This document shows positions 11,834 through 51,580 of a DNA stretch of 64,000 nucleotides, in pieces; positions within the stretch are counted from its first letter, which is position 1, and the number at the start of each line of letters is the position of its first letter. The position numbers and the translations under genes are program-made. The notes beneath the pieces were generated by a model that saw only the letters and a list, made by a program, of their open reading frames with translations, searched no databases and was not told the origin of the DNA. Source of the DNA: an uncultured Prolixibacteraceae bacterium (GTDB lineage: Bacteria; Bacteroidota; Bacteroidia; Bacteroidales; FEN-979); the NCBI GenBank assembly GCA_964455285.1, contig CAYVVG010000001.1:64960-128959 (forward strand), read 5' to 3'.

Positions 11834-13258
11834 CTATTGTTTTATGAGCGTTCCGGAAACGATGCGGTTATCTCCCCCAAAAATCCGGTAAACGTAAAAT
11901 CCCGGCTTCAAATGGCACAGGTTCAATGCGATATTTTCGCCGGAAAGGTCTGCCTCAAGGACAGTTGAACCCGCAAGGTCACAGATTTTAACAAGGAACC
12001 TTCCGGATATTCCTTGCAGCGTAACGATATCCTGAACAGGATTGGGATAGAAAGAGGGATAACATTCCGGATTTCGATCCCCCGGAACGCCGGTGTACAG
12101 GGCTGACTTCACATCCGCAACAGCGCCTTCGATGATGGTCAGGTTGTAGGGAATACTGGTGGGCGGAAGGGTGTACCATCCGTTGGCGGAACCGCCCCAA
12201 CCGAAATTGAAATGGTAGAACTCATCGGTATTGTATCCGTCAACGACTACGTTATGACCGCCGGAACCTCCCTCGACCAGCAGCCCGAGTTGCACGGGCA
12301 ACGCGGCTTTGATGTTTTCCGCGATCAGGGTGTTCAGCGTAGTGTCGTCGGGATACACCAGCCTCGACTCTTCAAAGCCGAACCGCTGCCAGGCCATGAT
12401 CGCCTGTTCGAGCCCGAATGTGCCCGACACGGAGGAACTGTAGACCTGGCGAGCCGCCACGCCGCAGGCAAAGGTAAGGGCCGCTTTCAAAGGATTGTTC
12501 AGTCCGTATTCCCACGAAACCTCCAGGCTGTCGAGCCAGTAATTCAGCGTATCGAAACAGGGAAAATCTCTGCTCTGGTAATCGTCGTCGATCCAGTAAC
12601 TGTTACCGGAGCCATAACTGTGGTAGTAGTCATCGGCATCGCCGAAACGGGTGCCGTTGATCCCGCGGTGGTAGTTGATCATCTGGGCCATGGCCGTGGC
12701 GGGACATCCGGCCACGCTCCGGTTGCCTGTATTCAGGTCGACAGGACACATATTGTTGTATGGAGCCGACTGGGTCCAGTTTGTCTCGAGCCATCCCCCG
12801 GTATAGGTAGTCCCCTCGGGCGGCCATTGCTCGAATGAGGGCGACCGGCCGCCACCCGACAGGAACTCCCTCCATTGCCGGCCTATCCGGGTTCGCTCAC
12901 CTGCAGACAGGTAACGGTAACCTTCGGCCCGGAGTTGCAGGTCATGCACCACAATTTCTTTCCATTCCCGGGCCTGCAGGGTCGAAAGATCCATGCTCTG
13001 ATCTGCCGACCAGGCATAAACCGGGGATACAGCGGTGGTGCCGGCCGTTACCACGAATCCCGCAGGGCGGAACAGGAAAAGATGCCCGGCCACTTCATTG
13101 TTTTCCTTCACTAACGGTATGTCGGCAACGATTTCCATTCGTTGCGAGTGATGGAACATAAACATCTCCGCCGCATGTCTCAGCGAATCGGCAGGGATCT
13201 CCCTTGCGACAGAAGACAGACCTGACAGCAGGCAGAGCGTAAAGAATAATCGTCTCAT
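11834..13258 (-). CDS. C10-family (streptopain/SpeB-like) cysteine peptidase with T9SS C-terminal sorting domain
   Basis: 474 aa. Signal peptide MRRLFFTLCLLSGLSSVA; catalytic Cys context VAGCPATAMAQMINYH; His context GGSGGHNVVVDGY...FYHFNFGWGG. C-terminal ~80 aa resemble the Por secretion tail (FYPNPVQDIVTLQ...YVYRIF...LIKQ). Confidence 0.85.
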   Translation of the reverse strand: MRRLFFTLCLLSGLSSVAREIPADSLRHAAEMFMFHHSQRMEIVADIPLVKENNEVAGHLFLFRPAGFVVTAGTTAVSPVYAWSADQSMDLSTLQAREWKEIVVHDLQLRAEGYRYLSAGERTRIGRQWREFLSGGGRSPSFEQWPPEGTTYTGGWLETNWTQSAPYNNMCPVDLNTGNRSVAGCPATAMAQMINYHRGINGTRFGDADDYYHSYGSGNSYWIDDDYQSRDFPCFDTLNYWLDSLEVSWEYGLNNPLKAALTFACGVAARQVYSSSVSGTFGLEQAIMAWQRFGFEESRLVYPDDTTLNTLIAENIKAALPVQLGLLVEGGSGGHNVVVDGYNTDEFYHFNFGWGGSANGWYTLPPTSIPYNLTIIEGAVADVKSALYTGVPGDRNPECYPSFYPNPVQDIVTLQGISGRFLVKICDLAGSTVLEADLSGENIALNLCHLKPGFYVYRIFGGDNRIVSGTLIKQ

Positions 13259-13285: not shown

Positions 13286-16200
13286 TCAAACAGTCCCGGA
13301 CTCGTCAACGGCAGTATTTTCGTCATAACTTTCCATGATCTCGTTGAGATCGAACATTTTTCCTGCGTTCTGTTCGACCAGTTTTTTATATTGAGCCGGA
13401 TTGATTGCCCGGATGACCGATAACAATTTTGCCAGTCCTGGTTTTTGTTCTCCGATATCTTCATCTCCGAAAGAATCACTTAATTTCTGAATGATTGATT
13501 TGTCGACCACCAGGAAATAGGCGATCACGGGTTTGATGCGATTGATCACTTCGAGGAGGTTGGCAAACCCGATGAAATACCGGGGGGAAATGGCGAACGT
13601 CCTCGGCATGAGATACTGCAGCCGTTTGGTAATCCTGATCGCCATCCCCATATCAACCTGAGATATCACGTCTAAAAATTTTGCAGTAGGTTGAAAATCA
13701 TCAGGATAAACAAAGTATTGCGTCGCATACTGGATGATGACTGCTTCTCTCGAAGAGATTTCCCGGATCAAGTCCTCCGACCGGATATCCTCTCCCATCT
13801 CCCCTGATTTTTGGATCAAATAGCCCAGCAAATGCGTAAATGTCCGTATGTGGATCCGATGGTGTATAGGCTGTCGTTTCAACAATTCCAACCAGTCAAT
13901 CTTCCTGATAACCTCTTTCTGTTTCTCCTCCCCGAGACTCGAAACAAGCGAACAAAAGGAGGCAGTCTCCTTGTTCGTGATCAGCCGGGAATAAGAAAAG
14001 ATATCCTCGAGTTTGAAATAGGCCGACAGTCTCTCTTTGCATGGCCCCAGGGCGTGGATGAAATTCAACAGCATCGGCAACCGGGGTGCCCCGGGTTGAA
14101 TACAGGTTTGAGCCACCTTTTCCCAGTTCAGTCGTTCGAGGAGTTCCCTTTTACCCGGATGAGAACCGAATGCGTTCAGCAGCCCGGCTACCTGGTCAAG
14201 TTGCTCCGCCTGAGCCATGTTCATCTTTTCAGCCAGTTGGTCATAGGCCAGTTTGTTCAGCAGGTCTTGCGTTTTCCTGCCCCCTCCGAGGGCAATGATG
14301 AAGTCAGCCACCTGGTTGAAATGGCCCACCTCCGCATGCCTTATTCTCCCTGCCAATCTATCCAGGTTGAGTTTTTCGATGAAGACTGTTCTTTCAGGAT
14401 GACCGGAGAGTGAATTCAACAGGGTAGCCACCCTGGATAACTGGTTGAGCTCTACAGCGTTAGCCGCCTTTGCCAGCTTCTCCAGTTCCAGGGCAACAAT
14501 GAATTTTCTTCCCTGTGCATGATAACCGATCGCCCCGATGAGATAGGCGATTGAATGAAATACGACCACCTCATAGGTTTTGATCGATTTCGCCAGTCGC
14601 TCGACATCTAAATGGCTGATAAAAAAATCTTTGTCTTTCGTCGATTGCAATGCATTGATAAAATCGGCCAGCTGAGTGAATTGTGATTCTCTTGCTTCAT
14701 TCGCATGCAGGGCCATTTTGGCGAGGTCGAGAAGGGAAAGAAACCTGTGTTTCTCCTTGGAAACACCCAGGGCGTTGATGACACTGGAAATCTGCGAAAA
14801 CTGTCCCACCGCGGCTTCACTCGCGTGACGGGCCATTTTGCCGACATCCAGCTTCTCAATGAAGCTTGCCCGGTTTCGCCCGAAGATGTGGATAAAATCC
14901 TGAATTGCTTTGAATTTCGATGGTGGTGCTTCTGAAGCCTGAACAGCAACACATTCAAAATAGGCCGGGGTCAGCAGGAGATTGTAAAACGCCGGGTGGA
15001 ATCGCTTCAGCGTTGTCAGCAGAAACGGGTATACGTGTAACTTTTCAACCACAAGGCTTGTGAGAAAACCGTTCACCCATACCGTGTTTTCCTGTAAAAG
15101 CAATGCCTGGCATTTCCGTATCGCATTAAAAAAGATCCCGAAATAGATGTGATCGGCATAATTCGTTGTCAGCAGATTTTGGAATGCCTGAAGGATCATC
15201 CTGATCATGAACTCGTCGCTGATCTGGTCAGTGATCGATTTTACGATGGCCTGTGACATCCTGTAATGCGGTGCCTTCAGGAAAACATTGTCCAGTTCTT
15301 TTCTGTGTTCCAGGATCAGCAATCTTCCGCTATCCTGGGAGGCAAGGTCGGTGATCAACCGGGACGGCGTATAAGATTCCATCTTTTTTTGCAAAAGTGG
15401 CGGTCCGGCACCGACCAACAATTCGATAAACTCAACCTGGCTGATTGCTTTATCCCCGGTAATGATATTCCTCGCTGAAAACAGGAAAATGGCCAGTATC
15501 AACAGATCCCGCTCATTTCGACGGGATATCTTTCCAAGTAATTGTGCAATCCTTTCTTCACCGGCTGAGGCGATAAAATTGAAATGCCATGGATCATGGA
15601 TCTTGCCATTTTCTTTCATCCTGATTGCCTCCTCCAGGCCTTTGCACCTTGCCGTGATCACCTCCCTGACCAGCGGGTTTTCAGAACGATAAAAGTCCCT
15701 CATCAGCCTGGGATAAAATTCATCAAAGGCAATACCGACAGCGTCAGGATTATCCTGCGGGCCTATTTCCAGGTAGTTGGTATTGATCCAGATGACCTTT
15801 CCGTTTTTATTCTGGCGGGCCTCTTCCTCAAACTCATACCTGAGTGCATTTTCAAACGGCAGGTTGTGGGCGTCATCTACCAGTATGATCTTATGCCGGT
15901 TACCTTTCAGAGCATCCAGTTCATCAAGCACCTGGGGTATCTCCTTTGTCTCCTTTATCCGATCAATAACCAGCCGGTAGCCCCTGCATTTGCTCCAGGG
16001 AATTTTGATGGATAACCGGTAGGAAAACCCCAGTCTCCTCCGGTATCGGAAAATAGCGTGATAAGCCAGCAGGGTTTTACCGTCGCCGGGCTTACCATTC
16101 TCCCACACAAATCTTTTTTCGTAAAGAGCCCGATAGATTTTGTCAATTTCCACGCTGACAGGGGCGACATGAACAAACCAGGGTTGTGATTTCTCAGAAT

Positions 16201-16528
16201 TCAATATTCCGTCCACGCCTTTCCTGAGGTTTTCCTTTGAAGGCTTTCCAAATTTCAGCGGTTCGAAATAGTGCTTGTCAGGTTTTTTAAGCGCGATATA
16301 CAACCGGCTTAGCAGGTAGGAAATCAGTAAAATGAGAATGAAAATTCCCCCGTAAGCGATAGCAGCGGCTGACCTGCTTTTCGGATCGAGCGATAATTCC
16401 TTATTGATCAGAGGGATCAAAACGGACATGAATCCCTCTTTGAACAGGGCGGTCAGTGCAATGAAAATACTCAATGGCACCAGCGCGGCCCAACGTTTCA
16501 GGCCCAGTCGTTTGGTTTTTCTTTTCAT
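13286..16528 (-). CDS. membrane-anchored P-loop (STAND/AAA-like) NTPase with C-terminal 40-residue helical repeat array; function unknown
   Basis: 1080 aa. Two N-terminal TM helices (about aa 13-29 and 55-78). Walker A GKPGDGKT (aa 145-152, nt 16073-16096). Walker B IILVDDAH (aa 214-221). A helical region follows, then about 10 repeats in strict 40-aa register (aa 516-915). Markedly lower G+C than its neighbours. Confidence 0.7.
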   Translation of the reverse strand: MKRKTKRLGLKRWAALVPLSIFIALTALFKEGFMSVLIPLINKELSLDPKSRSAAAIAYGGIFILILLISYLLSRLYIALKKPDKHYFEPLKFGKPSKENLRKGVDGILNSEKSQPWFVHVAPVSVEIDKIYRALYEKRFVWENGKPGDGKTLLAYHAIFRYRRRLGFSYRLSIKIPWSKCRGYRLVIDRIKETKEIPQVLDELDALKGNRHKIILVDDAHNLPFENALRYEFEEEARQNKNGKVIWINTNYLEIGPQDNPDAVGIAFDEFYPRLMRDFYRSENPLVREVITARCKGLEEAIRMKENGKIHDPWHFNFIASAGEERIAQLLGKISRRNERDLLILAIFLFSARNIITGDKAISQVEFIELLVGAGPPLLQKKMESYTPSRLITDLASQDSGRLLILEHRKELDNVFLKAPHYRMSQAIVKSITDQISDEFMIRMILQAFQNLLTTNYADHIYFGIFFNAIRKCQALLLQENTVWVNGFLTSLVVEKLHVYPFLLTTLKRFHPAFYNLLLTPAYFECVAVQASEAPPSKFKAIQDFIHIFGRNRASFIEKLDVGKMARHASEAAVGQFSQISSVINALGVSKEKHRFLSLLDLAKMALHANEARESQFTQLADFINALQSTKDKDFFISHLDVERLAKSIKTYEVVVFHSIAYLIGAIGYHAQGRKFIVALELEKLAKAANAVELNQLSRVATLLNSLSGHPERTVFIEKLNLDRLAGRIRHAEVGHFNQVADFIIALGGGRKTQDLLNKLAYDQLAEKMNMAQAEQLDQVAGLLNAFGSHPGKRELLERLNWEKVAQTCIQPGAPRLPMLLNFIHALGPCKERLSAYFKLEDIFSYSRLITNKETASFCSLVSSLGEEKQKEVIRKIDWLELLKRQPIHHRIHIRTFTHLLGYLIQKSGEMGEDIRSEDLIREISSREAVIIQYATQYFVYPDDFQPTAKFLDVISQVDMGMAIRITKRLQYLMPRTFAISPRYFIGFANLLEVINRIKPVIAYFLVVDKSIIQKLSDSFGDEDIGEQKPGLAKLLSVIRAINPAQYKKLVEQNAGKMFDLNEIMESYDENTAVDESGTV
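13784..14983 (-). repeat. protein-level repeat array: ~10 x 40 aa (7 clear units at nt 14024-14863)
   Basis: Units start at aa 556, 596, 636, 676, 716, 756 and 796, exactly 40 apart. Consensus: FIxKLDxxKLAxxxxxAExxQFxQVAxFINALGxxxxxxx. Degenerate units lie on both sides. Nucleotide copies are diverged, so this is not a recent duplication. Confidence 0.85.
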
Positions 16529-21906: not shown

Positions 21907-21967
21907 TCATCATTGGATCATCCCGGCCGAATGCCCGGAACAGTTATTGAACAAGAGTTTAGTGTTT

Positions 21968-24112
21968 ATGCCTGCAATCATGAACAACTCCTTGAAAATC
22001 AACGTAAAACATCTCCTCCTGGTTTTGACCTTTACATCGGGTTTTCATTCCGTACAAGCCCAGTGGATCCCGGGTCAGGGACTTGACGGAGCCAAGGTTT
22101 CGGATATGGTCGTGCTGGATTCGCTGCTCTTCATCTGCACGAACGCGAACGGCCTTTACGTCAGAAATCTCAACGGGGGCGAATGGCAGCAAAATACCCC
22201 GGAAGGAGGATATTCCATTGACCGTTGCGGCGACGCGCTGTTCACATGGTATCCGTACGATTGCTACCGGTCGCTCGACCACGGCGGCACATGGCAGAAC
22301 ATGTTACCCTACTTTGGCTACGGTTCCGTCAGGTCCTTTTGTGTGATCGACACATCGCTGTTTTTCACCACCACATTCACGAACGGATTGATGTTTCGAA
22401 GCGACGATTACGGAAACACACTCGACACAATAAACCATAACCTGCCTGCCCTGTTTCTCCCTTTGGTAAGCGCCGGCGACAGCGGCATGTTGTTTTGTTA
22501 TCAGGATTACCCGGGTCCCATGTATTTCCTGTCGGGGAACAAGGGGGCTACCTGGGACAGCATTCCAACCACCGGACTTCCCTCGTCTTCCTATGATACC
22601 TATACCATCGGGAACATGGGTTCTACCCTGTGGCTTTCGACCACCGCCGGGATCTTCAGGAAAGAAATTTCCCAGGGATCGTGGATTTTCGTGCAGGATT
22701 CCGTGCCGATCGCGCAAATGCAGGTGATTGACGGAACTCTTTTCGCCACCGCACTGTCGCGAGGACCCTTCCGGTTTGATCCGGGTTCCGGACAATGGAT
22801 CCAGGAGATTACCGGTCTTGAACAGCCTGCGGTGAACTCATTCTGTGCCGACAGCAGCCACATCTACCTGGCCACCCGGTTGGGTCCGTATAAATGCGAC
22901 ACCCCCTACACATGGCTCCCTTTTTACGGGGGATTGAACCAGTCCTCCGTTTCGATGGTATCTGCCCATGATAATGAGGTGTGGGCTGTGACCACCAGAG
23001 GCACTTTTATTTCTACGGATATGGGGGCTACTTTTACCCTTCACCCGTTAACCGGCATGGGGGATCCGGTGCGGCTGATCATGACCGATTCTTTATACTA
23101 TGCATTGTCGCACGGTTTTTTCTACCTGTCAACAGATCATGGGGCCAGTTGGACAAAGCAGCATACCGGGTTGCCGGATCCCCCTCCGGGAACATCACTT
23201 TCCTGCAATGGACTGGAAATGGTCTCTGACCAGCTGTTCCTCAAAACGGCGGCGGGACTGTTCCATTCCGACTTAAGTCCGATCCTGTGGACAGCCATTC
23301 CCCCCGGGCCGGCCGCCAGTGACATTTACAGGATCTTTGGCTGTGATTCCATTCTTTTCATGGTGAAGCGGGTTCAATCTTCCCCCGAGCAGTTCGCCTC
23401 TTTCCGGTCGGCCGACTTCGGCCTCACTTTCGATTCGATCACTACCCTACCCCTTCCCGGATACATTCCCTTTTTTGCCAATGACGGTGATCGTTTCTAT
23501 TCTCTGGTGTTCAACCGGATACTGAAATCGCAGGACTACGGCCTCACCTGGTCCGAGATCCCGGTGGGGAATCCCTCCATTCGCGGGCACAGTCTTTCCG
23601 TATCCGGACCGGCCGTAATTGTATGCGGATCCATACTGGATATGACGCTGACCGACCTGTATCTTGCTGTCACGTATGACGATGGAAACCACTGGACTGA
23701 TGTCCTCGACAACCTCCCGGATCCCTCGTGGCCGATCTTCCTCTGCATGGAAACCCATCAGCAGCGAACCTTCGTGGCTCCGAATGCCAACGGTTTGTGG
23801 TATCGTGACGGGTTGCTGACCACCATCCGGGAATCCAGGAGTGCAGAAGCGGGAACGTTGCGTATCCATCCCAATCCTGCCGGGCGGCAGGCCTGTCTGA
23901 AATTCACGCTGCCGATACCTGCCGATGGACAGGTGAGTATGTTCAATATGCAAGGAGAACTTGAATTCCAGGGAGATCCTGTGAGATTTTCAGGCGGAGA
24001 GAACACGGTCGTGCTTGACGTTCGCCCGTACACCCCCGGAGTACACTGCGTAGTGGTGACAACGGAGCAGCGTAAAATGGTCGGTACTTTCGTGGTGAGT
24101 CGTGAGTGGTGA
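21968..24112 (+). CDS. secreted BNR/Asp-box repeat beta-propeller protein (sortilin/VPS10- or GH74-like) with T9SS C-terminal domain
   Basis: At least 8 Asp-box motifs SxDxGxTW (SLDHGGTW, SGNKGATW, STDMGATF, STDHGASW, SADFGLTF, SQDYGLTW, TYDDGNHW...). Signal peptide ...FTSGFHSVQAQ. C-terminal Por tail (LRIHPNPAGRQACLKF...). The track start 21947 is TTG; I prefer ATG 21968. Confidence 0.75.
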   Translation: MPAIMNNSLKINVKHLLLVLTFTSGFHSVQAQWIPGQGLDGAKVSDMVVLDSLLFICTNANGLYVRNLNGGEWQQNTPEGGYSIDRCGDALFTWYPYDCYRSLDHGGTWQNMLPYFGYGSVRSFCVIDTSLFFTTTFTNGLMFRSDDYGNTLDTINHNLPALFLPLVSAGDSGMLFCYQDYPGPMYFLSGNKGATWDSIPTTGLPSSSYDTYTIGNMGSTLWLSTTAGIFRKEISQGSWIFVQDSVPIAQMQVIDGTLFATALSRGPFRFDPGSGQWIQEITGLEQPAVNSFCADSSHIYLATRLGPYKCDTPYTWLPFYGGLNQSSVSMVSAHDNEVWAVTTRGTFISTDMGATFTLHPLTGMGDPVRLIMTDSLYYALSHGFFYLSTDHGASWTKQHTGLPDPPPGTSLSCNGLEMVSDQLFLKTAAGLFHSDLSPILWTAIPPGPAASDIYRIFGCDSILFMVKRVQSSPEQFASFRSADFGLTFDSITTLPLPGYIPFFANDGDRFYSLVFNRILKSQDYGLTWSEIPVGNPSIRGHSLSVSGPAVIVCGSILDMTLTDLYLAVTYDDGNHWTDVLDNLPDPSWPIFLCMETHQQRTFVAPNANGLWYRDGLLTTIRESRSAEAGTLRIHPNPAGRQACLKFTLPIPADGQVSMFNMQGELEFQGDPVRFSGGENTVVLDVRPYTPGVHCVVVTTEQRKMVGTFVVSREW

Positions 24113-24126
24113 GTGGTGAGTGGTCA
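24092..24126 (+). repeat. tandem array 5 x 7 nt GTGGTGA / GTCGTGA
   Basis: gtggtga gtcgtga gtggtga gtggtga gtggtca. The BNR gene's stop (24110-24112) is the TGA of unit 3; the last residues VVSREW are repeat-encoded. Confidence 0.9.
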
Positions 24127-24249
24127 GGGAGCTCGCTCCGCCGGAGCGAAATCTCGGCAGCAGGATGATGTATCGGATGAATCCTCCCTCCTTCACCCAG
24201 TTTCTCCCCCATTTCACCGAAAAACCATCCCGGATCGGCGCGAATGTGC

Positions 24250-24257
24250 TATTTTTG
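24250..24257 (+). promoter_or_regulatory. candidate -7 box (TATTTTTG)
   Basis: Exact TAnnTTTG, 23 nt upstream of ATG 24281. A small palindrome TGGTTTT-TCCA-AAAACCA (24256-24274) lies between the box and the ATG. Confidence 0.45.
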
Positions 24258-24280
24258 GTTTTTCCAAAAACCATGATTCC

Positions 24281-26350
24281 ATGAAACGTTTACTTCCTCT
24301 CTTTCTCTGCCTGGCGCCGGTATTCGGGTTTGGCCAGGTGAAGTTCAACCCGCCGGCCACGGAGAAACACCCGGTGGTGGACACGCTGCACGGCTACCTG
24401 TTGACAGACAACTATCGCTGGCTCGAAGACAAGACCGACCCCAGGGTGGTCGAATGGACCCGGGCCCAGCATGACTATACGGTGAAATACCTCGAAGCCA
24501 CCCAGAAAACACACCCCGGCCTGCGTGACGAGGTCACGGCGTACATCGACATGGATTACGAGGGACCGCTGAGCAAGGAGGGGAAACGGGTGTTCCAGAC
24601 GATCCGCAAGAAGGGCGACAAGCAGTCGTCGGTGTGGACGATCCTCAGCGGGAAAAAGATCAAGATCTGGGACCCGGTGGCGCTCGATACCTCGGGAAAG
24701 ACCTCCACGACCGGCGTGGCCTACACCTACGACGGCGAGCGGGCCGCGGTGAGCGTACAGAAGAGCGGCGCAGAGATCTCCACCACTTACATCATCGACA
24801 CGCGCACGGGCAAGGTGCTCTACCCGCCCCTCGAAAATATCTTCGGCTACCAGTGGACGCGCGACCAGCAACACGCCTACTTCACCATTCGCAGCCAGAA
24901 GGATGTGGACGAACAACGCCCGCTCCGGACCTACCTGTGGAAAGTGGGCGACCCGGTGGATAAGGCCGGGTTCATCGGCACCACCACCGATGCGAAGAAT
25001 TCCTACTACGTGTACGACAACCGTTACAGCGACGTAAGTTTTTACGGCGAGAGCGACTTTAACTCCAACAGTTGCCGGATCTTCAAAACAGGGATGAATG
25101 TGGAAGGAAAACTGATTTACGAGAGCAAGGAATTCCAGTTCTACCCCTGGGCGATCGGCGAAAAGCTGTACGCACTCACCAACGACCACGCCCCCAATTA
25201 CCGCTTCATGACCACCGACAAGGCCCGTCCCGAGTTCAGGGACTGGAAGGTGCTGATCCCCGAAGGTCCGACGGTGATCCAGAACGTCGAAGTGCTGAAG
25301 GACGGCCGCCTGATCGTCCAGGACAAGGTCGACATCCAGAGCCGGCTTACTTTGTATGACCCCAACGGGAAGCGGATCGGTCCCATCGAATTGCCCGAGG
25401 TGGGCAACGTGAACTATGTAAGCTACGACCGCGAAGAGGATTCGGTGTACATCTACCAGAGCAGTTTCACCTCGGCGGGCAAGATGTATGTCGCCTCGCC
25501 GAACAACTTCAAATGGCGCCTCTATTACACCCGCGTGGTGCCGGTCGACATGAGCAACATCACCGGCGAGATCCGGTTCTATTATTCGAAAGACAGCACG
25601 CGCATCCCGGTGAATGTGATCCACCGCAAGGATCTGAAGCTCGACGGCAACAACCCGGTGTTCCTTACGGCCTATGGCGGGTTCAACATCGGCATCAGCC
25701 CGGGCTTCTACGGCTATTACGCACCCTTCATCAACCGCGGCGGCGTGGTGGTGGAGGCGGGCATCCGGGGGGGTGACGAGTACGGCGAAAAGTGGCACAA
25801 GGATGGGATGCTGCTCAACAAGCAGAACTGTTTCGACGACTTCAACGCCTGTGCCGAGTGGCTGGTAAAGGAGAAATACACCACCACCAACCGCATCGTC
25901 GCCGAAGGCGGAAGCAACGGCGGGCTGCTCATGGGCGCCATCGCCACGCAGCGTCCCGACCTTTATAAAGCGGTGATCTGCGCGGTGCCGCTGCTCGACA
26001 TGGTGCGCTTCCACAAGTTCCTTATCGCCCGCTACTGGATCCCCGAATACGGTTCGTCGGACAACGAAGAGGATTTCCGCAACATCCTCTCCTACTCACC
26101 TTACCACCACGTGCGTGCCGGGGTCAACCTGCCGACGATGCTGGTGCGCACCGGGGCCAACGACAGCCGGGTGGACCCCTTGCATGCCAAGAAATTTACC
26201 GCGCTGCTGCAGAACAACCCCGGCCAGGTCAACCCGGTTCTGCTCTATATCGACTACAACGTGGGCCATGGCAGCGGCCAGGCCACGAAACAGCGGATCG
26301 AGAATTCGCTGGTGGATTTCGAGTTCATCCTGAACCAGCTGGGGATGTAA
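24281..26350 (+). CDS. prolyl oligopeptidase (S9A serine peptidase), secreted/periplasmic
   Basis: 689 aa from ATG 24281 (signal peptide MKRLLPLFLCLAPVFGFGQ). N-terminal propeller region with YRWLED motif. Nucleophile elbow GGSNGGLLMGA; Asp context GANDSRVDP; His context NVGHGSG. The track's 5' extension (GTG 24113) covers the repeat region and was trimmed. Confidence 0.9.
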   Translation: MKRLLPLFLCLAPVFGFGQVKFNPPATEKHPVVDTLHGYLLTDNYRWLEDKTDPRVVEWTRAQHDYTVKYLEATQKTHPGLRDEVTAYIDMDYEGPLSKEGKRVFQTIRKKGDKQSSVWTILSGKKIKIWDPVALDTSGKTSTTGVAYTYDGERAAVSVQKSGAEISTTYIIDTRTGKVLYPPLENIFGYQWTRDQQHAYFTIRSQKDVDEQRPLRTYLWKVGDPVDKAGFIGTTTDAKNSYYVYDNRYSDVSFYGESDFNSNSCRIFKTGMNVEGKLIYESKEFQFYPWAIGEKLYALTNDHAPNYRFMTTDKARPEFRDWKVLIPEGPTVIQNVEVLKDGRLIVQDKVDIQSRLTLYDPNGKRIGPIELPEVGNVNYVSYDREEDSVYIYQSSFTSAGKMYVASPNNFKWRLYYTRVVPVDMSNITGEIRFYYSKDSTRIPVNVIHRKDLKLDGNNPVFLTAYGGFNIGISPGFYGYYAPFINRGGVVVEAGIRGGDEYGEKWHKDGMLLNKQNCFDDFNACAEWLVKEKYTTTNRIVAEGGSNGGLLMGAIATQRPDLYKAVICAVPLLDMVRFHKFLIARYWIPEYGSSDNEEDFRNILSYSPYHHVRAGVNLPTMLVRTGANDSRVDPLHAKKFTALLQNNPGQVNPVLLYIDYNVGHGSGQATKQRIENSLVDFEFILNQLGM

Positions 26351-26392: not shown

Positions 26393-26947
26393 ATGATAGA
26401 CAGACTCCTGGCGTTGGGACAACAGGACGAATCGCTGCGCGCCTTTATTACAGATAAATTCGAGGAGCGCACGGTGCCTGCCAGGACGGTGCTCCTTCGG
26501 GAAGGCGAGGTATCGACGCATCTCTATTGTGTTAAAAAGGGATGCCTCCGGCTTTGGGTCAACAAGGATGGGAAAGATATCACCGTGCAGTTCTTTTTCG
26601 AGGGACAGGGAGTGGCATCGATTGAGAGCCTGCTCACCGGGCAGCCGAGCCTGTTCACGCTGGAGACCATTGAACCGGCAACGCTTACGGTGTTCACGAA
26701 GGAGACGTTCGAGGAGTTGATGGCGCGCTTCCCGGCGTTCAGAGAAGGGTTTAACGACCTGCTGTTCCAACGGTTCCGTCATTATGCCGGACTGTTCCTG
26801 TCGAGGATCCGGGATACCCCCATGGAACGGTATGAGGACCTGATCAGAAACCACCCGGAGATCCTCCGGCGCATCCCGCAGCATTACATCGCCTCGTACC
26901 TGGGAATCACGCCCATCTCGCTCAGCCGCATCCGAAACCGTCGGTGA
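26393..26947 (+). CDS. Crp/Fnr-family transcriptional regulator (cNMP-binding domain + HTH)
   Basis: 184 aa. Beta-barrel cNMP-binding-like region (LLREGEVSTHLYCVKKGCLRLW...). C-terminal HTH IPQHYIASYLGITPISLSRIRNR. No N-terminal Cys cluster of FNR proper. Confidence 0.8.
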   Translation: MIDRLLALGQQDESLRAFITDKFEERTVPARTVLLREGEVSTHLYCVKKGCLRLWVNKDGKDITVQFFFEGQGVASIESLLTGQPSLFTLETIEPATLTVFTKETFEELMARFPAFREGFNDLLFQRFRHYAGLFLSRIRDTPMERYEDLIRNHPEILRRIPQHYIASYLGITPISLSRIRNRR

Positions 26948-27009: not shown

Positions 27010-27831
27010 ATGTTTCTTTCCCTTTCTGGTCGCCGTCACGACAGTTCCGATCACGTGATGCTCGAAACCCGCCGGTGCGAAGCCTGTTGGACCTGTCTCC
27101 GGGTCTGCAAAAATCAGGTCTTCGGACGCATTAACCTGCCGTTCCACCGCCATGCCCTGATCTCCCATCCGGAGAATTGCTCCGGATGCCTCCGGTGTCT
27201 CAAAGCCTGTCCTGACAGAGCCATCCACTCTGTAGATCAGAAGGAAAGTCTTCGTTCATCATCCCTCCGGATCATTTTCCGGCGCCACCTGCGCGACCTC
27301 CTCCTGGTGACCGGCTTCGCCCTCCTGCTTTCCGGCATAACCATCCAGGTGGGATACCACATGGGGCATCGTGATTCAACAGTTACAACAGATCCGCCCG
27401 GGAATCATACAACGACCTCTGGTCGAGTGATTGATCAGGCTTCTTCTTTTGCAGGCCTTCCCTATTCCACCTGGTCAATCCTGCACCGCACCCTTTCGCT
27501 CGTGTTCTCGGCAGCGCTACTCTGTCATCTCGTATTCCATCGATTGTGGTATCGCGAGACCTTGAACGGCCGGAAACGGATCCGGGATCACCGGTTAGTT
27601 GCCGGACTATCGTTTCTGCTGCTCCCGGTTGCTTTCACCGGTTTCCTGGCCTGGCTCTTCACCCTCACGGGGGCCAATGCCGCCAGGTTGGGGCTGATCG
27701 AAATCCATGACAAGATCGCTATGGCGTTTGGCGTATTAATGATAACCCATGGATGGCGGAAGGTGACAGGTTACTGCTTCACCACTTTTACCGACCGGGT
27801 CTCGTCTCCGGAGGTGACGCGCAGCAGGTAA
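27010..27831 (+). CDS. fusion protein: 2x[4Fe-4S] ferredoxin-type domain + four-TM His-rich domain (DUF4405/di-haem-b-like)
   Basis: 273 aa. Cluster motifs CEACWTCLRVC and CSGCLRCLKACP. Four TM helices follow, with conserved-looking His in TM1 (QVGYHMGH), TM2 (ILHRT...LLCHLVFH) and TM4 (IEIHDK...ITHGW). Its 3' end overlaps the convergent cytochrome gene by 61 nt. Confidence 0.65.
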   Translation: MFLSLSGRRHDSSDHVMLETRRCEACWTCLRVCKNQVFGRINLPFHRHALISHPENCSGCLRCLKACPDRAIHSVDQKESLRSSSLRIIFRRHLRDLLLVTGFALLLSGITIQVGYHMGHRDSTVTTDPPGNHTTTSGRVIDQASSFAGLPYSTWSILHRTLSLVFSAALLCHLVFHRLWYRETLNGRKRIRDHRLVAGLSFLLLPVAFTGFLAWLFTLTGANAARLGLIEIHDKIAMAFGVLMITHGWRKVTGYCFTTFTDRVSSPEVTRSR

Positions 27832-29492
27832 ATACCGGCTGGTCCGTCAAGCAACAGGGACCGGGTACCGCCGGAAAGGAAGCTGCCCTCGCCGGTCTTT
27901 TCTCCGCGACCGGTAAAGATATCCATGTGGAAAGTCCGGTCATTCACGGCCCCCGCGATCTCAACGGTGATCATCCCCGTGGTGGGATTGGGGTAAGCAG
28001 TGACCGTAAACGATTCCACCTTCGCGATTCGGGGTCCCTGCGTTGCCTCTCCTCCGGTCAAGGGCGCCGCCGGGGCCGGGCAATACTGGTTGTTGGTGGT
28101 GATATACCCGTGAAGGTAGCTTCCCGCAGCGGCGGTGGTCCCGGGCAGGAAATTAACCGCCAGCCCGGCCACGAAGGTAGCGTTGCCGCCGCTCTGGACG
28201 GTAACTGCGGTGCCATTTCCAGCGACACGGAGAAATCCCGATGCCGGGTAGCAGGACGTCAGTCCGCTTCCGACCGAAATGTTCTGTACGGTAGAATTCA
28301 TGATCCCGTGGGGGCCCGGGCCGGAGGGATAATAGCCATGGCAAACCGCGCAATCGGAAAGTGTTCCCGCATGGCCCTGCAGGGAGGTGTTCTGGAGGTT
28401 GTCACGTTCGTTCCCGGTAGGAAAGATGGCATGCGGCGACCCGTGACAGGCGCTGCAATAAAGGCTGCCGTGACCCTTCGAATTGCGGAACAGTTTACCG
28501 GGCTCCTCGGCATAGGCGGGACCATGGCAGGCTGCCGCACCGCAGGAAGGCTCTTCCAGCCAGGGCTCCCTCCCGTCCTCCTCGATGGATTTACCGACCT
28601 GGTAAGTGCTCCCGTGGCAATCCTGGCATTTTGTGATCCCGCCGGGCGAGCCGTGCATGACGTCACGCCAGCACTGGGTGTTGGGTCCAGGGTGACATTT
28701 GTAGCAATCATCGGAGGTGCCTCCCGTGATAAACTCCCCGTGTTTTAGGTGCATCACCTGTGAAAAGGAGGGCACCCCGGGCATCCCCGGTTTGCCCAGC
28801 GCGTTATCGGAGTGACAATCGGCGCAAAAGATGGGCCGGTTGTTGATGTTGAACCCGGAAACCGGGTCGTGCATCTGCAGGATGTTCAGCTCGCTGGTAT
28901 GGCATCCGGAGCTGACGCAGTTGATCTCGTGAGAAACGGGAATCACGCTTTGGGTCGTCGCCAGCAATTCATTCGAAGCGGAGAACACTTTGATCAGGGT
29001 CAGCTGGTAAGGATCCTGCACTGTGGGCGTCGCGTCGGGATAAGCCGTGACGGGGATCCCTTCGGCGTGGAAATAATTCCCGGCTGCCGCCGGCATCGGT
29101 CCCGACATGCCGAATCCCGCCAGGCCTACATTCGGAGGTAAAGCCACGCCAAAAAGCTGCTGCGCATAACTCCAGAAGTTGGTTTTGGTGGCCGACTGGG
29201 TGTTCACGGGTATCTCGTAGGTAAGGTATATGCCTGAGGTCCCGTTCAAAACGGCAGGAAGCGAGGTTGGGGATCCCCTGAAGATCACCTGTGCCGTCTG
29301 GTTGTTATAAGGCGGCAGGATGCACATGTTCGAAAAGTCCTGGTTGGCGCAATGCATGCCCAGGTCGTTCCAGGCCAGCACGATGTACTGGGGGTTCAGG
29401 GAGGCCGATTTACCACCGGGGGCGGCGGTAAAAGAGGTAAGCAGCCCCGGAACGATGGATACCAGCAAGGCAAGGGTAAATTTTCTTTTCAT
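27771..29492 (-). CDS. multihaem c-type cytochrome (7 haem-binding motifs) with T9SS C-terminal sorting domain
   Basis: 573 aa. Signal peptide MKRKFTLALLVSIVPGLLTSFTA. Five CxxCH motifs (CADCH, CYKCH, CQDCH, CSACH, CAVCH) plus two CxxxxCH (CVSSGCH, CGAAACH). Last ~80 aa resemble the Por tail (FTVTAYPNPTTGMITVEI...GIYLLRV...VKVVKQ). Confidence 0.8.
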   Translation of the reverse strand: MKRKFTLALLVSIVPGLLTSFTAAPGGKSASLNPQYIVLAWNDLGMHCANQDFSNMCILPPYNNQTAQVIFRGSPTSLPAVLNGTSGIYLTYEIPVNTQSATKTNFWSYAQQLFGVALPPNVGLAGFGMSGPMPAAAGNYFHAEGIPVTAYPDATPTVQDPYQLTLIKVFSASNELLATTQSVIPVSHEINCVSSGCHTSELNILQMHDPVSGFNINNRPIFCADCHSDNALGKPGMPGVPSFSQVMHLKHGEFITGGTSDDCYKCHPGPNTQCWRDVMHGSPGGITKCQDCHGSTYQVGKSIEEDGREPWLEEPSCGAAACHGPAYAEEPGKLFRNSKGHGSLYCSACHGSPHAIFPTGNERDNLQNTSLQGHAGTLSDCAVCHGYYPSGPGPHGIMNSTVQNISVGSGLTSCYPASGFLRVAGNGTAVTVQSGGNATFVAGLAVNFLPGTTAAAGSYLHGYITTNNQYCPAPAAPLTGGEATQGPRIAKVESFTVTAYPNPTTGMITVEIAGAVNDRTFHMDIFTGRGEKTGEGSFLSGGTRSLLLDGPAGIYLLRVTSGDETRSVKVVKQ

Positions 29493-29518: not shown

Positions 29519-29526
29519 CAAAGATA
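29519..29526 (-). promoter_or_regulatory. candidate -7 box (TATCTTTG) for the cytochrome gene
   Basis: Plus strand caaagata = minus strand TATCTTTG. Exact TAnnTTTG, 26 nt upstream of ATG 29492. Confidence 0.45.
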
Positions 29527-29857: not shown

Positions 29858-30595
29858 TCACAAGAGCAGGAAATCGAGGTTATCGGAAGCCGAATATTCC
29901 TTTGCCTCCTGTCCGTACCGGAACACCCTCAGGGGACGCGACCCGGTAAGGGTCATGGAGTCGCCGGACACCCGGAGCAGGCATCCTTCGCGAAGACCGA
30001 CGACGGTCGTGGTGCGGTTGACTGTGAGGAATTCGAGGATGCGTTGTTCCCGTGTCTCCCCGGCATGACCGGCCGGGTTGGCGTCGAGGTAGTGCGGATT
30101 GATCTGGAAAGGAACCAGGTCGAGGCAGCCGAAGGAGGGTGGTTCACAAACAGGCATGTCGTTGGTGGTCTTCATCGTCGGGCAGGCCACGTTGGCCCCG
30201 GCACTCCACCCGGCGAAGGGAGTGCCCTGCAGCACCTTCCGGCGGATGGCTTCCATCAGTCCCAGTTCCTGCATCATCATCACCAGGTGAAAGGTATTCC
30301 CGCCTCCCACCACGATCGACTCCGCTTCGTTGACGGCCGACACGGGATCGGGCTCCCGGTGCACCGAAGTGAGGCTGAATCCCATTTCGCTGAATATCGT
30401 CGCGACCCTTTCTTCATACAGGCCGAACGAACGGGTCAGGCTTTCGGGCGACAGGTTCACTCCTGCAAAAGGCACGAACAGCACGCGCTTCACCCCTGCT
30501 TCTTCAAAAAAGGATTTCAGGTGCCGGCGCGGCCAGGCGAGGTAATCCTCCCCCGCGTTGGTGGAGTTGGAAATAAGCAGAAGATTTCGGATCAT
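29858..30595 (-). CDS. pepE: dipeptidase E (S51 peptidase, alpha-aspartyl dipeptidase)
   Basis: 245 aa. LLLISNSTN start, GGGNTFHL motif, nucleophile context GWSAGANV, and a His further downstream. Typical PepE length. Confidence 0.85.
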   Translation of the reverse strand: MIRNLLLISNSTNAGEDYLAWPRRHLKSFFEEAGVKRVLFVPFAGVNLSPESLTRSFGLYEERVATIFSEMGFSLTSVHREPDPVSAVNEAESIVVGGGNTFHLVMMMQELGLMEAIRRKVLQGTPFAGWSAGANVACPTMKTTNDMPVCEPPSFGCLDLVPFQINPHYLDANPAGHAGETREQRILEFLTVNRTTTVVGLREGCLLRVSGDSMTLTGSRPLRVFRYGQEAKEYSASDNLDFLLL

Positions 30596-42546: not shown

Positions 42547-43677
42547 CTACCTGGCCACGATCTTGTATTTCAGTTTCACCAGGTCGATGAGAATCGTGTA
42601 ATTACCGGCTCCCGGTGATGGAATCGACGGTGGATCGGCAACGCCCTCATTCGGACGATACACGAGGTTGCCGAAGTTGCTGCTTCCGTTCGCATCGGTT
42701 CCCCATTGCGGCGCCCAGCCGGTCGTGGTCTCCATGAACTTCAGGTTACCTGCCGCCAGCGTGGTGCTGAGTGAAAAATAGCCCGCGGAATCTTTGGTGA
42801 AAGCGATCCCGCTTGCCGGATCCCATCCTGCAGCGCAACCGTCGCCCACGAGGTACAACTGGGCGGAGGTGGCCGTAACGGTGTACGTCAGCAGGGCGGT
42901 ATCGGCCACGATGCGGTAATCACCCTCGGCGAGGGGGCAAGGAATGGCCGGCGGATCGGGTTCCGATTCGGTCGCACGATACACCAGGTTACCCGATTCG
43001 GGCGTGCCGGCGGCATCGGTCCCCCATTGCGGAGCCCATGCGTTGAGGTTGGCAATGAATTTCAGGAACTTGCCTCCGGTCTGCAGGTGATCGACAATGG
43101 CGAACTTCCCTCCATCCAGGTATGACAGGGCCCTGGCCTTGGAGTTATCCCAGCCCACCGTCGTGGCATCCCCCAGCAGGTAGATAGGGGGCAGGATCAC
43201 GACTGCGTTGTACGGGGTGATATCGAGTGTGACCACCTCGGAGATGTTGTTGGTGGCCGGATTGCCGGATGCCAGGGAGGCCTTGACCCGGAACTGAAAA
43301 TGGTACAAACTGTCGCCAACGCCGTTGAATACCGCCAGGATCATGTCGTTCATGGCACCTGCGGTCATCGAATGGGCAAAGCCCTGCCCGGTGTACATCA
43401 CCTTCGGGTTGCTGAAGTTGTTCCCGCTTATATCCATTTCGAGGGTATAGGTGGGGGGGATGATCTCCGCTTTCAGGTTATAATCAGCCGCGATCCAGTT
43501 GAATTTAAAAAGGAGGGAATCCTTCAGTTCCTCTTTCAGTACGAAGGACGAACCTGCTGAGGGGGTTTGGATTACGGCAGGTTTAAAGAACTCAAGGACT
43601 GCTTTGGTCTCATCCTTTTTACACGACACCCAGCTGAATAAACCAACGGCCAGCAATAAAATTGATATCTTTTTCAT
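42547..43677 (-). CDS. SusE/SusF-like outer-membrane starch-binding lipoprotein
   Basis: 376 aa. Lipobox LFSWVSC. Located immediately downstream of susD. Two tandem C-terminal modules share LxGDxxxxGWD...KF...WAPQWGTDAxG...GNLVYR. Confidence 0.7.
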   Translation of the reverse strand: MKKISILLLAVGLFSWVSCKKDETKAVLEFFKPAVIQTPSAGSSFVLKEELKDSLLFKFNWIAADYNLKAEIIPPTYTLEMDISGNNFSNPKVMYTGQGFAHSMTAGAMNDMILAVFNGVGDSLYHFQFRVKASLASGNPATNNISEVVTLDITPYNAVVILPPIYLLGDATTVGWDNSKARALSYLDGGKFAIVDHLQTGGKFLKFIANLNAWAPQWGTDAAGTPESGNLVYRATESEPDPPAIPCPLAEGDYRIVADTALLTYTVTATSAQLYLVGDGCAAGWDPASGIAFTKDSAGYFSLSTTLAAGNLKFMETTTGWAPQWGTDANGSSNFGNLVYRPNEGVADPPSIPSPGAGNYTILIDLVKLKYKIVAR

Positions 43678-43696
43678 GTTGATTGGTTTTATCAGA

Positions 43697-45931
43697 TTAA
43701 TATTTCGGATTCTGTTTCAGGTTGGGATTGGCCGTTACGTCGGTCGCCGGGATCGGGAAGATGTCGTACATCGGATCCACCGATTTTCCGTCCTTGGTGC
43801 CACCCTTCCAGGGCCACGCATAGGTACCGCTGCTGAACTGGCCGAAGCGGATCAGGTCGGTGCGGCGGTAGCCTTCCCAATACAGTTCCCGGGCGCGCTC
43901 ATCCAGGATGAATTCGGGGGTAAGGTCGGCGCTGGAAATTCGTCCGGTCTCATCGGTAAAGGCACGGTCGCGGATCGCGTTGACCAGGTCGAGCGCGGTT
44001 CCCGCGTCGCCGCCGCTTCCGCCTTTGAGAACGGCTTCGGCATACATCAGGTAGACATCGGCCAGGCGGAACACCGGGAAATCGGTATCGACAAAGGTGG
44101 CATCGCTGCCCGGCACGCCGGTGCTGGATACATTCGTGAACTTGGGTACCGCGTACCCTTCGGTGAATACGCCGATGTCGTTGATCTCAAGCGACTGTCC
44201 ATCGGTATAGAAGATCGGACGGTGGTCGATGCTGGGAGGCGTGTTGACCACAATGGTATAGGTGTAATCCGGGGCTCCCAGTTTCATGGTGATCAGGTAG
44301 TTCCCGGCCGTCGGGATGGATATGTTGGATCCGCCGGCTTCGAGGATGCCGTTGGCGCCGTCGTCGCCGTAGTTGATGTCCCAGCCGTCGTTGGCGCGGA
44401 ACTTGATCTCTCCCACTCCGAGGTCGAGGATCACGCTCCAGGTGCCGGCGGCCGCGTCATAGGTCATGTTCTGGTCCGAATCCCAGCCGCCGGCCGTGGC
44501 CGAGCCGATGACTCCCCAGTCGGTCTTGACTGCCGTGTAGGTCAGAGCGGTCATATCGACATTCAACTTATAGTAGCCAGCGTCGGCCATTGTGATGTTG
44601 CTTCCCGGATGCGCAAGTTTCCCGGTAGAAGTCCCATCATCGCCATAGTCGTTGGTCCAGTCGGGGGTGGTACAGAATTTGAACTCGGCACTGGCCGGGA
44701 AAGAGAGATAGCCTTCGAACTTGTTGTCGCTGGCAACCGATTTCAGGACGGTAGTGGTATTGGAAGGATCCCACCCCTGGTGATTGCCGGGCACATAGAG
44801 CATCGGGTAATCGCGGTTTGCCTTGCGGGGCTTGGGCGACGACCAGAAGCTGGGAACATCGCCGTCGGGAAAGAACTTGTCGACCAGGCCGCTGGTGGTG
44901 CGGATACCGCCCCAACCGCCGCCGATGCCGTAATTCCCCGGGGTCATGCTTCCCCCGACAGCAGCGTGAACGATGAAGGTCGTTCCGCCCCAGGTCTGGG
45001 TGCGGGTGCCGTCGAATGCGACCGGGAAGATGATCTCATTGCTGAGGTGGTTGTCGGCCGTGAAGAGGTTCTGGTAAACAGGCTCGAGGGTGTACCCGGC
45101 GCCGAGCACCTTGTTGCAATAGGTGAGGCACTTGGTGAGTTCGCCCGGATAGTCAAACCCGCTGACTTCCTTATTATAGACCTGCGAGTTCAGGTACAGC
45201 TTGGCCAGGAGCGTCCATGCGGCAGCCTGTCCGGCACGGGCGTACTCGGGCCCCTTCACGCTGGTCAGCAGGGGTTCGATGGCCAGGAGTTCAGATTCGA
45301 CATATTTGTAGAGATTTGCCCGGGTGATCTGCGGAGGGAAGAATTTTCCGACCGGATCGTTCTCGGTGACGAAGGGCACGTTGCCGAAGAGGTCCAGCGC
45401 GTGGTAGTAGCTCAGTGCCCGCAGGAAGCGTGCCTCGAGCCGGTACTGGCGGATGAGGTTCTTTTCGGCTTCGTTGAAACCACGTTCATCCAGCTTGCTG
45501 TCGCTCGACTCGCGGATAAACTCGTTGGTAGCGCATACCTGGAAGAAGATCCGGTAGTACATCGCTGCGACGAAAACATCGCTGGATCCCCACGACTGGC
45601 TATGGAAGTTTTTGATCGTCTGGTCGTTCCACCCGATGACAGCCTCGTCGGTCGTCAACTCCTGGTGATACCAGTAACCGCGGAGGTATTCGCCGAATCC
45701 TTCGTCGATCCCTTTGATGTCGGGTTTACCGGCAGGGCCTTCCTGTCCTGAAACAGCAAGACCGGCATACAGTTTGGCAAGCACCATTTTATAGTTGCCT
45801 GCCGTTTTATAAACGTTGACAGTTGTCCAGTCATCCGGATCGATGGGCTTGGTATCCAGATCTTTGACACAGGAGGCAAGAAACACGGTCATTGCCAGCA
45901 CCATGCCTGTTATCGTGAATATTCTTTTCAT
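43697..45931 (-). CDS. susD: SusD/RagB-family nutrient-binding lipoprotein, unusually long (744 aa) with internal tandem beta-sandwich insertion
   Basis: Lipobox VFLASC. SusD N-terminal TPR-like helices (LAKLYAGLAV..., RFLRALSYYHALDLFGNVPF). Canonical C-terminus (FRLADVYLMYAEA..., ERARELYWEGYRRTDLIRF). A segment of about 190 aa at aa 376-562 is unlike SusD. Confidence 0.85.
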   Translation of the reverse strand: MKRIFTITGMVLAMTVFLASCVKDLDTKPIDPDDWTTVNVYKTAGNYKMVLAKLYAGLAVSGQEGPAGKPDIKGIDEGFGEYLRGYWYHQELTTDEAVIGWNDQTIKNFHSQSWGSSDVFVAAMYYRIFFQVCATNEFIRESSDSKLDERGFNEAEKNLIRQYRLEARFLRALSYYHALDLFGNVPFVTENDPVGKFFPPQITRANLYKYVESELLAIEPLLTSVKGPEYARAGQAAAWTLLAKLYLNSQVYNKEVSGFDYPGELTKCLTYCNKVLGAGYTLEPVYQNLFTADNHLSNEIIFPVAFDGTRTQTWGGTTFIVHAAVGGSMTPGNYGIGGGWGGIRTTSGLVDKFFPDGDVPSFWSSPKPRKANRDYPMLYVPGNHQGWDPSNTTTVLKSVASDNKFEGYLSFPASAEFKFCTTPDWTNDYGDDGTSTGKLAHPGSNITMADAGYYKLNVDMTALTYTAVKTDWGVIGSATAGGWDSDQNMTYDAAAGTWSVILDLGVGEIKFRANDGWDINYGDDGANGILEAGGSNISIPTAGNYLITMKLGAPDYTYTIVVNTPPSIDHRPIFYTDGQSLEINDIGVFTEGYAVPKFTNVSSTGVPGSDATFVDTDFPVFRLADVYLMYAEAVLKGGSGGDAGTALDLVNAIRDRAFTDETGRISSADLTPEFILDERARELYWEGYRRTDLIRFGQFSSGTYAWPWKGGTKDGKSVDPMYDIFPIPATDVTANPNLKQNPKY

Positions 45932-45951
45932 GTTATCAATAGTTTATTTGG

Positions 45952-48990: not shown

Positions 48991-49139
48991 AGATTTGGTT
49001 TTAACTAGTTTAACATTACATGAACTGTATTTTATATCATTGGATCAAATAAAGAATGCCGGTGCAAAATAATAAAAAAAAAAGACTGTATTCTCAAAAA
49101 AAAAAACTCCTTATTTAAGCAACTCAAACACAATATCAT

Positions 49140-50354: not shown

Positions 50355-50488
50355 AGTGAGCCGGTTCAATGATTCGATGATAAAGGTAAGCATTATTTCC
50401 GGAAATGGGCCATGTTCGTTTTCAGACTGCTCCAATCCTGTTCGGGCGGATATTTTTTTTGACCGGCGGAAGATCGGGGATTCTGCCG

Positions 50489-50496: not shown

Positions 50497-50512
50497 CCCG
50501 GTGCACCCATTT

Positions 50513-51572: not shown

Positions 51573-51580
51573 TGGCGGAC

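Follow-up and report, generated by a model that had tools for sequence, protein, structure and literature searches.

The 64,000-nucleotide window analysed here, from contig CAYVVG010000001.1 of an uncultured Prolixibacteraceae bacterium, encodes a 573-residue protein that carries seven c-type haem motifs and ends in a type IX secretion system (T9SS) sorting domain. Taking the statement as a whole, we narrowly favour the view that this protein is a secreted heptahaem c-type cytochrome, exported as T9SS cargo and working as an extracellular redox module. Its parts carry different weights. That the gene specifies a heptahaem cytochrome with a real T9SS C-terminal domain (CTD) is very likely, export of the cytochrome by the T9SS is probable, and a role in extracellular electron transfer is a finely balanced proposal that we hold with some hesitation. 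What is new is the combination of a type A CTD with a multihaem cytochrome. Annotation pipelines already list both domains side by side, and the architecture sits uninterpreted in the databases.

Haem motifs, core domains and sorting domain

Five CxxCH motifs, at residues 223, 263, 289, 346, and 381, and two CxxxxCH motifs, at residues 192 and 317, are present in the cytochrome. A first-pass annotation of the window had described this 573-residue protein with its Sec leader and its five plus two motifs, and the description holds: 20,000 shuffles of the same protein gave a mean of 0.04 haem motifs and a maximum of 2, and no other open reading frame (ORF) in the window has more than one. The search for a known multihaem family that the annotation had proposed returned Pfam Cytochrome_C7 (PF14522) at 27.4 bits, above its cut-off of 24.8. 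All seven haem sites are invariant across 79 relatives from many phyla, which gives the protein the several conserved CxxCH-type motifs of a multihaem c-type cytochrome. In Chloroflexota relatives, both CxxxxCH sites are plain CxxCH, and we therefore take both as genuine haem sites.

Alignments define a sharply delimited core of ~370 residues (residues ~28-396) composed of an N-terminal beta-sandwich and a seven-haem domain. Core identity to the window protein is 49-77% from Bacteroidales to Chloroflexota, with values of 53-77% within Bacteroidota and 50-53% in Chloroflexota. Across 78 species, mean identity is 53% for the beta-sandwich and 60% for the haem domain, compared with 18% for the spacer that follows the core and 27% for the CTD, both of which are often absent. 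The spacer is missing from relatives of ~490 residues, and its match to GCX_COOH is weak and under the cut-off (E = 0.0019).

Exactly seven His residues outside the haem motifs are invariant in the core: H47 in the beta-sandwich domain and H208, H248, H251, H341, H354, and H395 in the haem domain. The alignment thus offers seven conserved candidate distal axial ligands for seven haems. Because there is one candidate distal His per haem, the simplest reading would be an all-bis-His electron-transfer protein; haems that transfer electrons, unlike catalytic ones, typically show bis-His ligation. H47, which lies in the invariant WNDLGMHC sequence, would tie the beta-sandwich domain to the haem chain.

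We built structure models of the full-length protein and of the core with AlphaFold2. The full-length model has a predicted local distance difference test (pLDDT) score of 70, and its Foldseek matches are limited to beta-sandwich tails. The core-only model, from 130 diverse sequences, reaches pLDDT 88.7 and a predicted template-modelling (pTM) score of 0.88, and in this confident monomer model the N domain is predicted to pack in cis on the haem domain. A Foldseek search of the core model against the PDB found no neighbour at E ≤ 1e-3; the top-ranked structure, MtrC (6qyc), fell short of significance (E 3e-3, template-modelling (TM) score 0.15). Two profile searches against PDB sequences returned nothing under E = 0.07.

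At the N-terminus, MKRKFTLALLVSIVPGLLTSFTAAP shows by inspection the n-region and h-region of a Sec signal peptide without a lipobox Cys. The helix predicted by AlphaFold2 at residues 2-20 agrees with this assignment, so that both inspection and model point to the Sec leader expected of T9SS cargo. An MKK start followed by a hydrophobic stretch is common to the cytochrome homologues.

The claim that the protein ends in a T9SS CTD also stood. NCBIfam TIGR04183 (Por_Secre_tail), the curated model, matches residues 500-573 with 31.6 bits, above its cut-off of 23, while Pfam PF18962 reaches 23.3 bits, under its cut-off of 27. In the full-length model the CTD is a confident beta-sandwich (pLDDT 82-93) whose Foldseek matches include RgpB (7pq4), mirolase (8qb1, TM 0.71), and the NucA CTD (8glk_D, TM 0.72), the last being a substrate CTD bound in a T9SS translocon complex. 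The modelled tail is thus predicted to have the Ig-like beta-sandwich fold of solved T9SS CTDs.

The YPNP, GxY, and KVVK motifs of the cytochrome align with the tails of a C10 peptidase and a GH13 amylase in the window. Likeness to these two and to a beta-helix protein had been part of the earlier description; the first two pass hidden Markov model (HMM) cut-offs, whereas the beta-helix tail is similar at the motif level alone and has no HMM match at E ≤ 1e-4. Since the window carries this other CTD cargo and the host belongs to the Bacteroidales, the host would be expected to have a T9SS. A BNR/sortilin-like repeat protein (21947-24112, plus strand) has a C-terminus, IHPNPAGRQ...VGTFVV, that resembles a further T9SS CTD; no match to a CTD-model HMM was listed for it at the thresholds used.

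A widespread family with exchangeable tails

The first-pass annotation had treated the cytochrome as a one-off. It is instead part of a heptahaem family, very large, highly conserved, and unstudied, whose members are found far outside Bacteroidota. When 5.8 billion proteins were searched with the window protein, the candidates scored included more than 2,285 relatives, nearly all of them unnamed or labelled just "T9SS type A sorting domain-containing protein", and a second search with a distant member as the query yielded over 3,000. Among 1.84 billion representatives of clusters at 50% identity, a profile search recovered 651 clusters with E ≤ 1e-30; relaxing the threshold to E ≤ 1e-10 brought the number to 1,542. 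Scanning one genome per species, we found the family in at least 584 GTDB species.

Carriers among the matches listed belong to Bacteroidales, Ignavibacteria, Kapabacteria, Chlorobiota, Zixibacteria, Calditrichota, Eisenbacteria, Krumholzibacteria, Gemmatimonadota, and Chloroflexota (including Anaerolineae), together with a few oddly labelled bins, and the gene has apparently spread across phyla. All 160 carrier genomes among these matches are metagenome-assembled genomes (MAGs). The window's own ParC is 84% identical to ParC of MAGs from stratified lakes, including Lake Pavin, and its next-closest relatives come from MAGs labelled Draconibacterium or Prolixibacteraceae. The host is an uncultured member of the Bacteroidales whose near relatives are MAGs from stratified and ferruginous lakes.

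Outside the core, family members differ in what they carry at the C-terminus. When 79 members were scanned singly, 38 matched TIGR04183, 20 matched FlgD_ig (a C-terminal Ig domain), eight matched dockerin, and two matched DUF5666. Chloroflexota members stop 1-16 residues after the core or carry other modules, one relative (L054) ends in a hydrophobic C-terminal membrane helix, and some Bacteroidales relatives (P0041, P0075, and L012) are tailless. In longer relatives the core is fused to DUF11, CARDB, PKD, FN3/Ig, cohesin plus dockerin, InlB B-repeat, or PASTA domains, and no catalytic domain was found fused to it among them. The tail types (T9SS CTD, FlgD-Ig, dockerin, cohesin, PKD, CARDB, and PASTA) are surface-targeting or surface-adhesion modules. 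Because the same core is mounted on each lineage's own surface-targeting module, it would act outside the cell, and the device used here would be the T9SS. This tail swapping is the strongest comparative evidence for both points.

Some architectures stand apart. Tandem duplications of the whole core, ~900-1035 residues long with 14 haem motifs (L016 7992-10706; L033 989-4093; P0002-P0008), recall the four-domain layout of MtrC. In several Zixibacteria and Ignavibacteria MAGs (L022, L025-L027, L030, and L032), the core ends in dockerin repeats and has no T9SS CTD, and between them P0252 and P0337 provide one relative with both dockerin and cohesin and another with a PASTA fusion. The dockerin and cohesin relatives hint at cellulosome-like extracellular scaffolds that might hold cytochromes.

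We also compared gene neighbourhoods. None of the window's six neighbours, when searched by BLAST against 80 homologous loci, recurs beside the homologues. Clustering the ORFs of the 80 loci all-against-all, with the encoding contigs also looked up, gave no neighbour family present at more than eight of ~80 loci and none that is a cytochrome or a porin. These results divide the earlier suggestion of a candidate cell-surface electron conduit. The surface location is strengthened by the exchange of one surface module for another, whereas the word "conduit" is not supported: no porin, periplasmic cytochrome, or other family recurs beside the gene at the 80 loci, which leaves a solitary gene with no visible trans-outer-membrane path.

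Proposed mechanism, known systems and competing explanations

From these data we infer haem loading, bis-His ligation, T9SS export, surface anchoring, and an extracellular electron-transfer role. The Sec leader would deliver the apoprotein to the periplasm, where the cytochrome c maturation system would covalently attach seven haems. Six of these would be spaced at intervals of ~29 residues in a compact haem domain on which the beta-sandwich packs, with H47 probably serving as one axial ligand, and bis-His ligation is predicted for all seven. The type A CTD would then mark the folded holoprotein for passage through the T9SS translocon, which transports folded cargo. Once the CTD had been cleaved off, the cytochrome would be anchored on the surface or released. 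There it could form an extracellular terminal redox module, a chain of tightly packed bis-His haems passing electrons to or from outside partners, possibly Fe(III)/Mn(IV) minerals, humics, soluble shuttles, or partner cells. Because no partner is found in cis, crossing of the outer membrane would require an unlinked conduit or diffusible shuttles.

This scheme has parallels among known surface cytochromes. The surface decahaem proteins of Shewanella (MtrC, OmcA, MtrF, and UndA) have in common with the arrangement proposed here their surface exposure and a bis-His haem domain, densely packed, that comes after a beta-domain, and the tandem relatives of ~900 residues and 14 haems mimic the beta-haem-beta-haem layout of the MtrC type. 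PF22113, the MtrC/MtrF haem domain, gives weak matches in 25 of the 79 relatives (best E 1.6e-10), TIGR03507 matches four relatives, and DmsE-type decahaem models give weak matches in 20 of the 79. We rejected membership of the MtrC/OmcA/MtrF group for the window protein. It scores 14.6 bits with PF22113 against a cut-off of 30, has seven haems and a two-domain core rather than ten haems and a four-domain fold, and has a leader without Cys and so no lipoprotein signal; the fold match to 6qyc is insignificant, and no MtrA-like cytochrome or MtrB-like porin lies beside the gene at ~80 loci. Export also differs, since MtrC-type proteins use type II secretion (T2SS) and a T9SS CTD route is proposed for the window protein.

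OcwA of Thermincola, from the monoderm metal reducers, resembles the proposed cytochrome in being an outermost terminal reductase held by lineage-specific anchoring, and the Chloroflexota members, with the core alone or with cell-wall modules, look analogous to OcwA-type surface cytochromes. The PDB searches gave no sequence or fold likeness to the OcwA type, however; the two differ in their number of haems, and in this comparison only the heptahaem family has the N-terminal beta-sandwich with WNDLGMHC. Porin-cytochrome conduits (MtrCAB; OmaB-OmbB-OmcB of Geobacter) have the same proposed role of bringing respiratory electrons to the cell exterior. They are operons in which an outer cytochrome is encoded together with its porin and periplasmic cytochrome, whereas the heptahaem gene is solitary in the contexts examined.

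Two further classes were considered and rejected. Neither the PDB profile searches nor the Foldseek lists contained nanowire subunits (OmcS, OmcE, OmcZ, and the archaeal extracellular cytochrome nanowires, ECNs). Of the catalytic multihaem enzymes, NrfA, HAO/ONR, OTR, MccA, and TsdA were not matched in our searches, and the NrfB-type matches are noise (E 0.73 and 0.0022, far under cut-offs).

As T9SS cargo, the protein has a Sec leader, a ~75-residue beta-sandwich, and motifs B, D, and E in common with RgpB, mirolase, NucA and ChiA of F. johnsoniae, and amylases. To our knowledge, T9SS cargos are hydrolases, adhesins, and haem-binding proteins, none with covalent cofactors, and literature searches agree; the window cargo would differ in carrying seven covalent haems. 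The first-pass annotation had been aware of no established T9SS route for multihaem cytochromes, which also agrees with these searches: no paper was found that links T9SS or type IX secretion with multihaem cytochromes. Papers combining T9SS and c-type cytochrome had unrelated titles among the matches listed, and one that we checked was irrelevant. Secreted multihaem cytochromes in Bacteroidota have been predicted, and extracellular electron transfer proposed, in work that leaves the T9SS unmentioned (PMC11495043).

Several observations weigh against a T9SS-exported extracellular electron-transfer protein. The PF18962 score falls under its cut-off, no T9SS machinery genes lie within the 64 kb window, and we found no precedent for T9SS export of a covalently haem-loaded protein. 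None of the 160 carrier genomes among the matches listed is from a cultured organism. Known outer-surface cytochromes such as MtrC and OmcB are encoded beside their trans-outer-membrane partners, and the lack of any recurrent gene family at the 80 loci leaves no such partner visible. Two lone Cys residues, C48 (adjoining H47) and C274, are invariant, for which a C48-C274 disulfide would be the simplest guess. The degree of core conservation across phyla, with many invariant polar residues in the beta-domain, is unusually high for an electron wire and would also fit an enzyme or a highly specific partner.

That enzyme is the alternative that survives best, and we consider it unlikely. In an extracellular redox enzyme, the WNDLGMHC region of the beta-sandwich would be a substrate site on one haem while the other six feed or drain electrons; an example would be a His/Cys- or Met-ligated haem acting on sulfur species or another soluble extracellular substrate. 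M46 and C48, which flank H47, are invariant, and the M46-H47-C48 triad would suit an active site. The polar residues N42, N63, N97, S100, K103, D153, Q163, and E189 are also invariant, and the non-haem N domain is nearly as well conserved as the haem domain (53% vs 60%) within a core that is 49-77% conserved across phyla. An enzyme would likewise suit a gene that is solitary, self-contained, and apparently spread across phyla, and a core with no fold relative in the PDB search. Against this, the number of invariant non-motif His residues equals the number of haems, so that an open coordination site need not be assumed. No catalytic multihaem family rises above noise, no enzyme domain is fused to the core, and an extracellular enzyme would itself still need an electron route.

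Next comes a cytochrome that is released in soluble or matrix form once its CTD is removed, diffusing or polymerising as a shuttle, capacitor, or filament. This possibility, also unlikely, is really a variant of the surface redox module that we favour. In favour of release, Flavobacterium sets free many of its type A CTD cargos instead of anchoring them, 14-haem tandem relatives exist (L016, L033, and P0002-P0008), and the dockerin and cohesin relatives suggest assembly on extracellular scaffolds. No likeness to OmcS, OmcE, or OmcZ appears in sequence or fold, however, the confident monomer model places the N domain in cis, and many relatives carry adhesion or anchor modules or, as in L054, a C-terminal membrane helix. 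A periplasmic electron carrier whose C-terminal beta-sandwich is an Ig-like domain with no secretion role would be compatible with the PF18962 score, the tailless Bacteroidales relatives (P0041, P0075, and L012), and a window without T9SS genes, but it is very improbable given the TIGR04183 score above cut-off, the tail fold that matches solved CTDs, the presence of all three CTD motifs in common with other window cargo, and the exchange of the tail for other surface modules, not for nothing, in most diderm lineages.

Genomic context and biological meaning

The features of the cytochrome gene and of other window genes are collected in Table 1. Upstream of the cytochrome ATG, TATCTTTG matches the Bacteroidota -7 promoter consensus, TAnnTTTG, and suggests that the gene has its own candidate promoter. 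A generic scan for sigma-70 promoters and terminators near the gene was uninformative, with counts at or under shuffle expectation. The gene appears to be monocistronic.

Table 1. Positions of the cytochrome gene, its parts, and other genes in the window (residue numbers are those of the 573-residue cytochrome)
Feature	Position	Strand	Description	Basis
Cytochrome gene ORF	27771..29492	-	573 residues, ATG start	
Stop codon of cytochrome gene	27771-27773	-		
Signal peptide, Sec (signal peptidase I type)	29421..29492	-	MKRKFTLALLVSIVPGLLTSFTAA, residues 1-~24, lipobox Cys absent	Inspection of sequence
Candidate promoter element	29519..29526	-	TATCTTTG, 26 nucleotides 5' of ATG	Inferred from match to Bacteroidota -7 consensus
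N-terminal beta-sandwich domain of core	28929..29411	-	Residues 28-188, invariant WNDLGMHC (H47, C48) and LPPYNN	Strands throughout in core model, invariant columns
Seven-haem domain	28305..28928	-	Residues 189-396	Motifs, alignment, Cytochrome_C7 match
Haem motif residues			C192/C197-H198, C223/C226-H227, C263/C266-H267, C289/C292-H293, C317/C322-H323, C346/C349-H350, C381/C384-H385	
Variable beta-rich spacer	28008..28304	-	Residues 397-495, with C414 and C471, confined to subfamily of ~573 residues	Strands 400-464, pLDDT 81-92
T9SS type A C-terminal sorting domain	27774..28007	-	Residues 496-573, motifs YPNP, GIYLLRV, KVVKQ	TIGR04183, Foldseek, alignment
C10 peptidase	11834-13258	-	T9SS cargo	PF18962, 33.6 bits
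GH13 amylase	56146-59001		T9SS cargo	TIGR04183, 42.4 bits
Prolyl oligopeptidase	24113-26350	+		
Crp/cNMP-binding regulator	26393-26947	+	Followed by Fer4-dicluster/DUF4405 gene	
Fer4-dicluster/DUF4405 membrane protein	27010-27831	+	273 residues, convergent, overlaps cytochrome 3' end by 61 bp	
Peptidase E	29858-30595		Neighbour of cytochrome gene	

The convergent neighbour at 27010-27831 combines an N-terminal 4Fe-4S dicluster domain with a His-rich DUF4405 membrane domain and, from these domains, could be a membrane electron-transfer protein. This protein and the Crp-like regulator were considered as operon partners of the cytochrome and rejected, as both are absent beside the 80 homologous loci. 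The listed GTG start of the prolyl oligopeptidase ORF lies ~55 codons 5' of a much likelier start (MKRLLPLFLCLAPVFG, a signal peptide), and the long N-terminal extension is probably untranslated.

The rest of the window consists of a starch-utilisation locus and housekeeping genes. The locus (42547-59001) contains SusE-like, SusD, and SusC genes (42547-48990), several GH13 genes, GH53, GH2, and esterases. The C10 peptidase gene lies directly upstream of genes for a B12-binding radical SAM protein (10464-11831) and a SAM methyltransferase (9668-10462), all on the minus strand. Neither Pfam nor NCBIfam gave a match at E ≤ 1e-4 to two long minus-strand ORFs, 13286-16528 (1080 residues) and 60701-63409 (902 residues).

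If the proposed role is correct, the cytochrome would represent a new class of T9SS cargo, a cofactor-loaded redox protein, and would bring a new way of export to outer-surface cytochromes, for which few are known (T2SS lipoproteins and porin-cytochrome complexes). Anoxic sediments, lakes, wastewater sludge, and electrodes harbour Bacteroidota, Ignavibacteria, and related groups in abundance, and we know of no established means by which such groups exchange electrons with minerals or partner cells. More tentatively, as a possibility that we stop short of favouring, the family could be a stand-alone, horizontally spread heptahaem "plug-in" for extracellular electron exchange in hundreds of uncultured species of the FCB group (Fibrobacteres, Chlorobi, and Bacteroidetes) and Chloroflexota in anoxic waters and sediments. 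It would be mounted on lineage-specific surface devices and operate without a dedicated porin-cytochrome conduit, with the T9SS exporting the folded seven-haem protein. In that case Bacteroidota would possess a path for extracellular electron transfer that has so far gone unrecognised.

Because the family is large, extremely conserved, and structurally unplaced, with a location set by swappable tails, it is a candidate marker of extracellular electron transfer outside Proteobacteria and Desulfobacterota. Marker sets built solely on Shewanella and Geobacter cytochromes would miss it, as its likeness to those proteins is at most weak. Through the heptahaem family, many sediment bacteria may be able to trade electrons with their environment.

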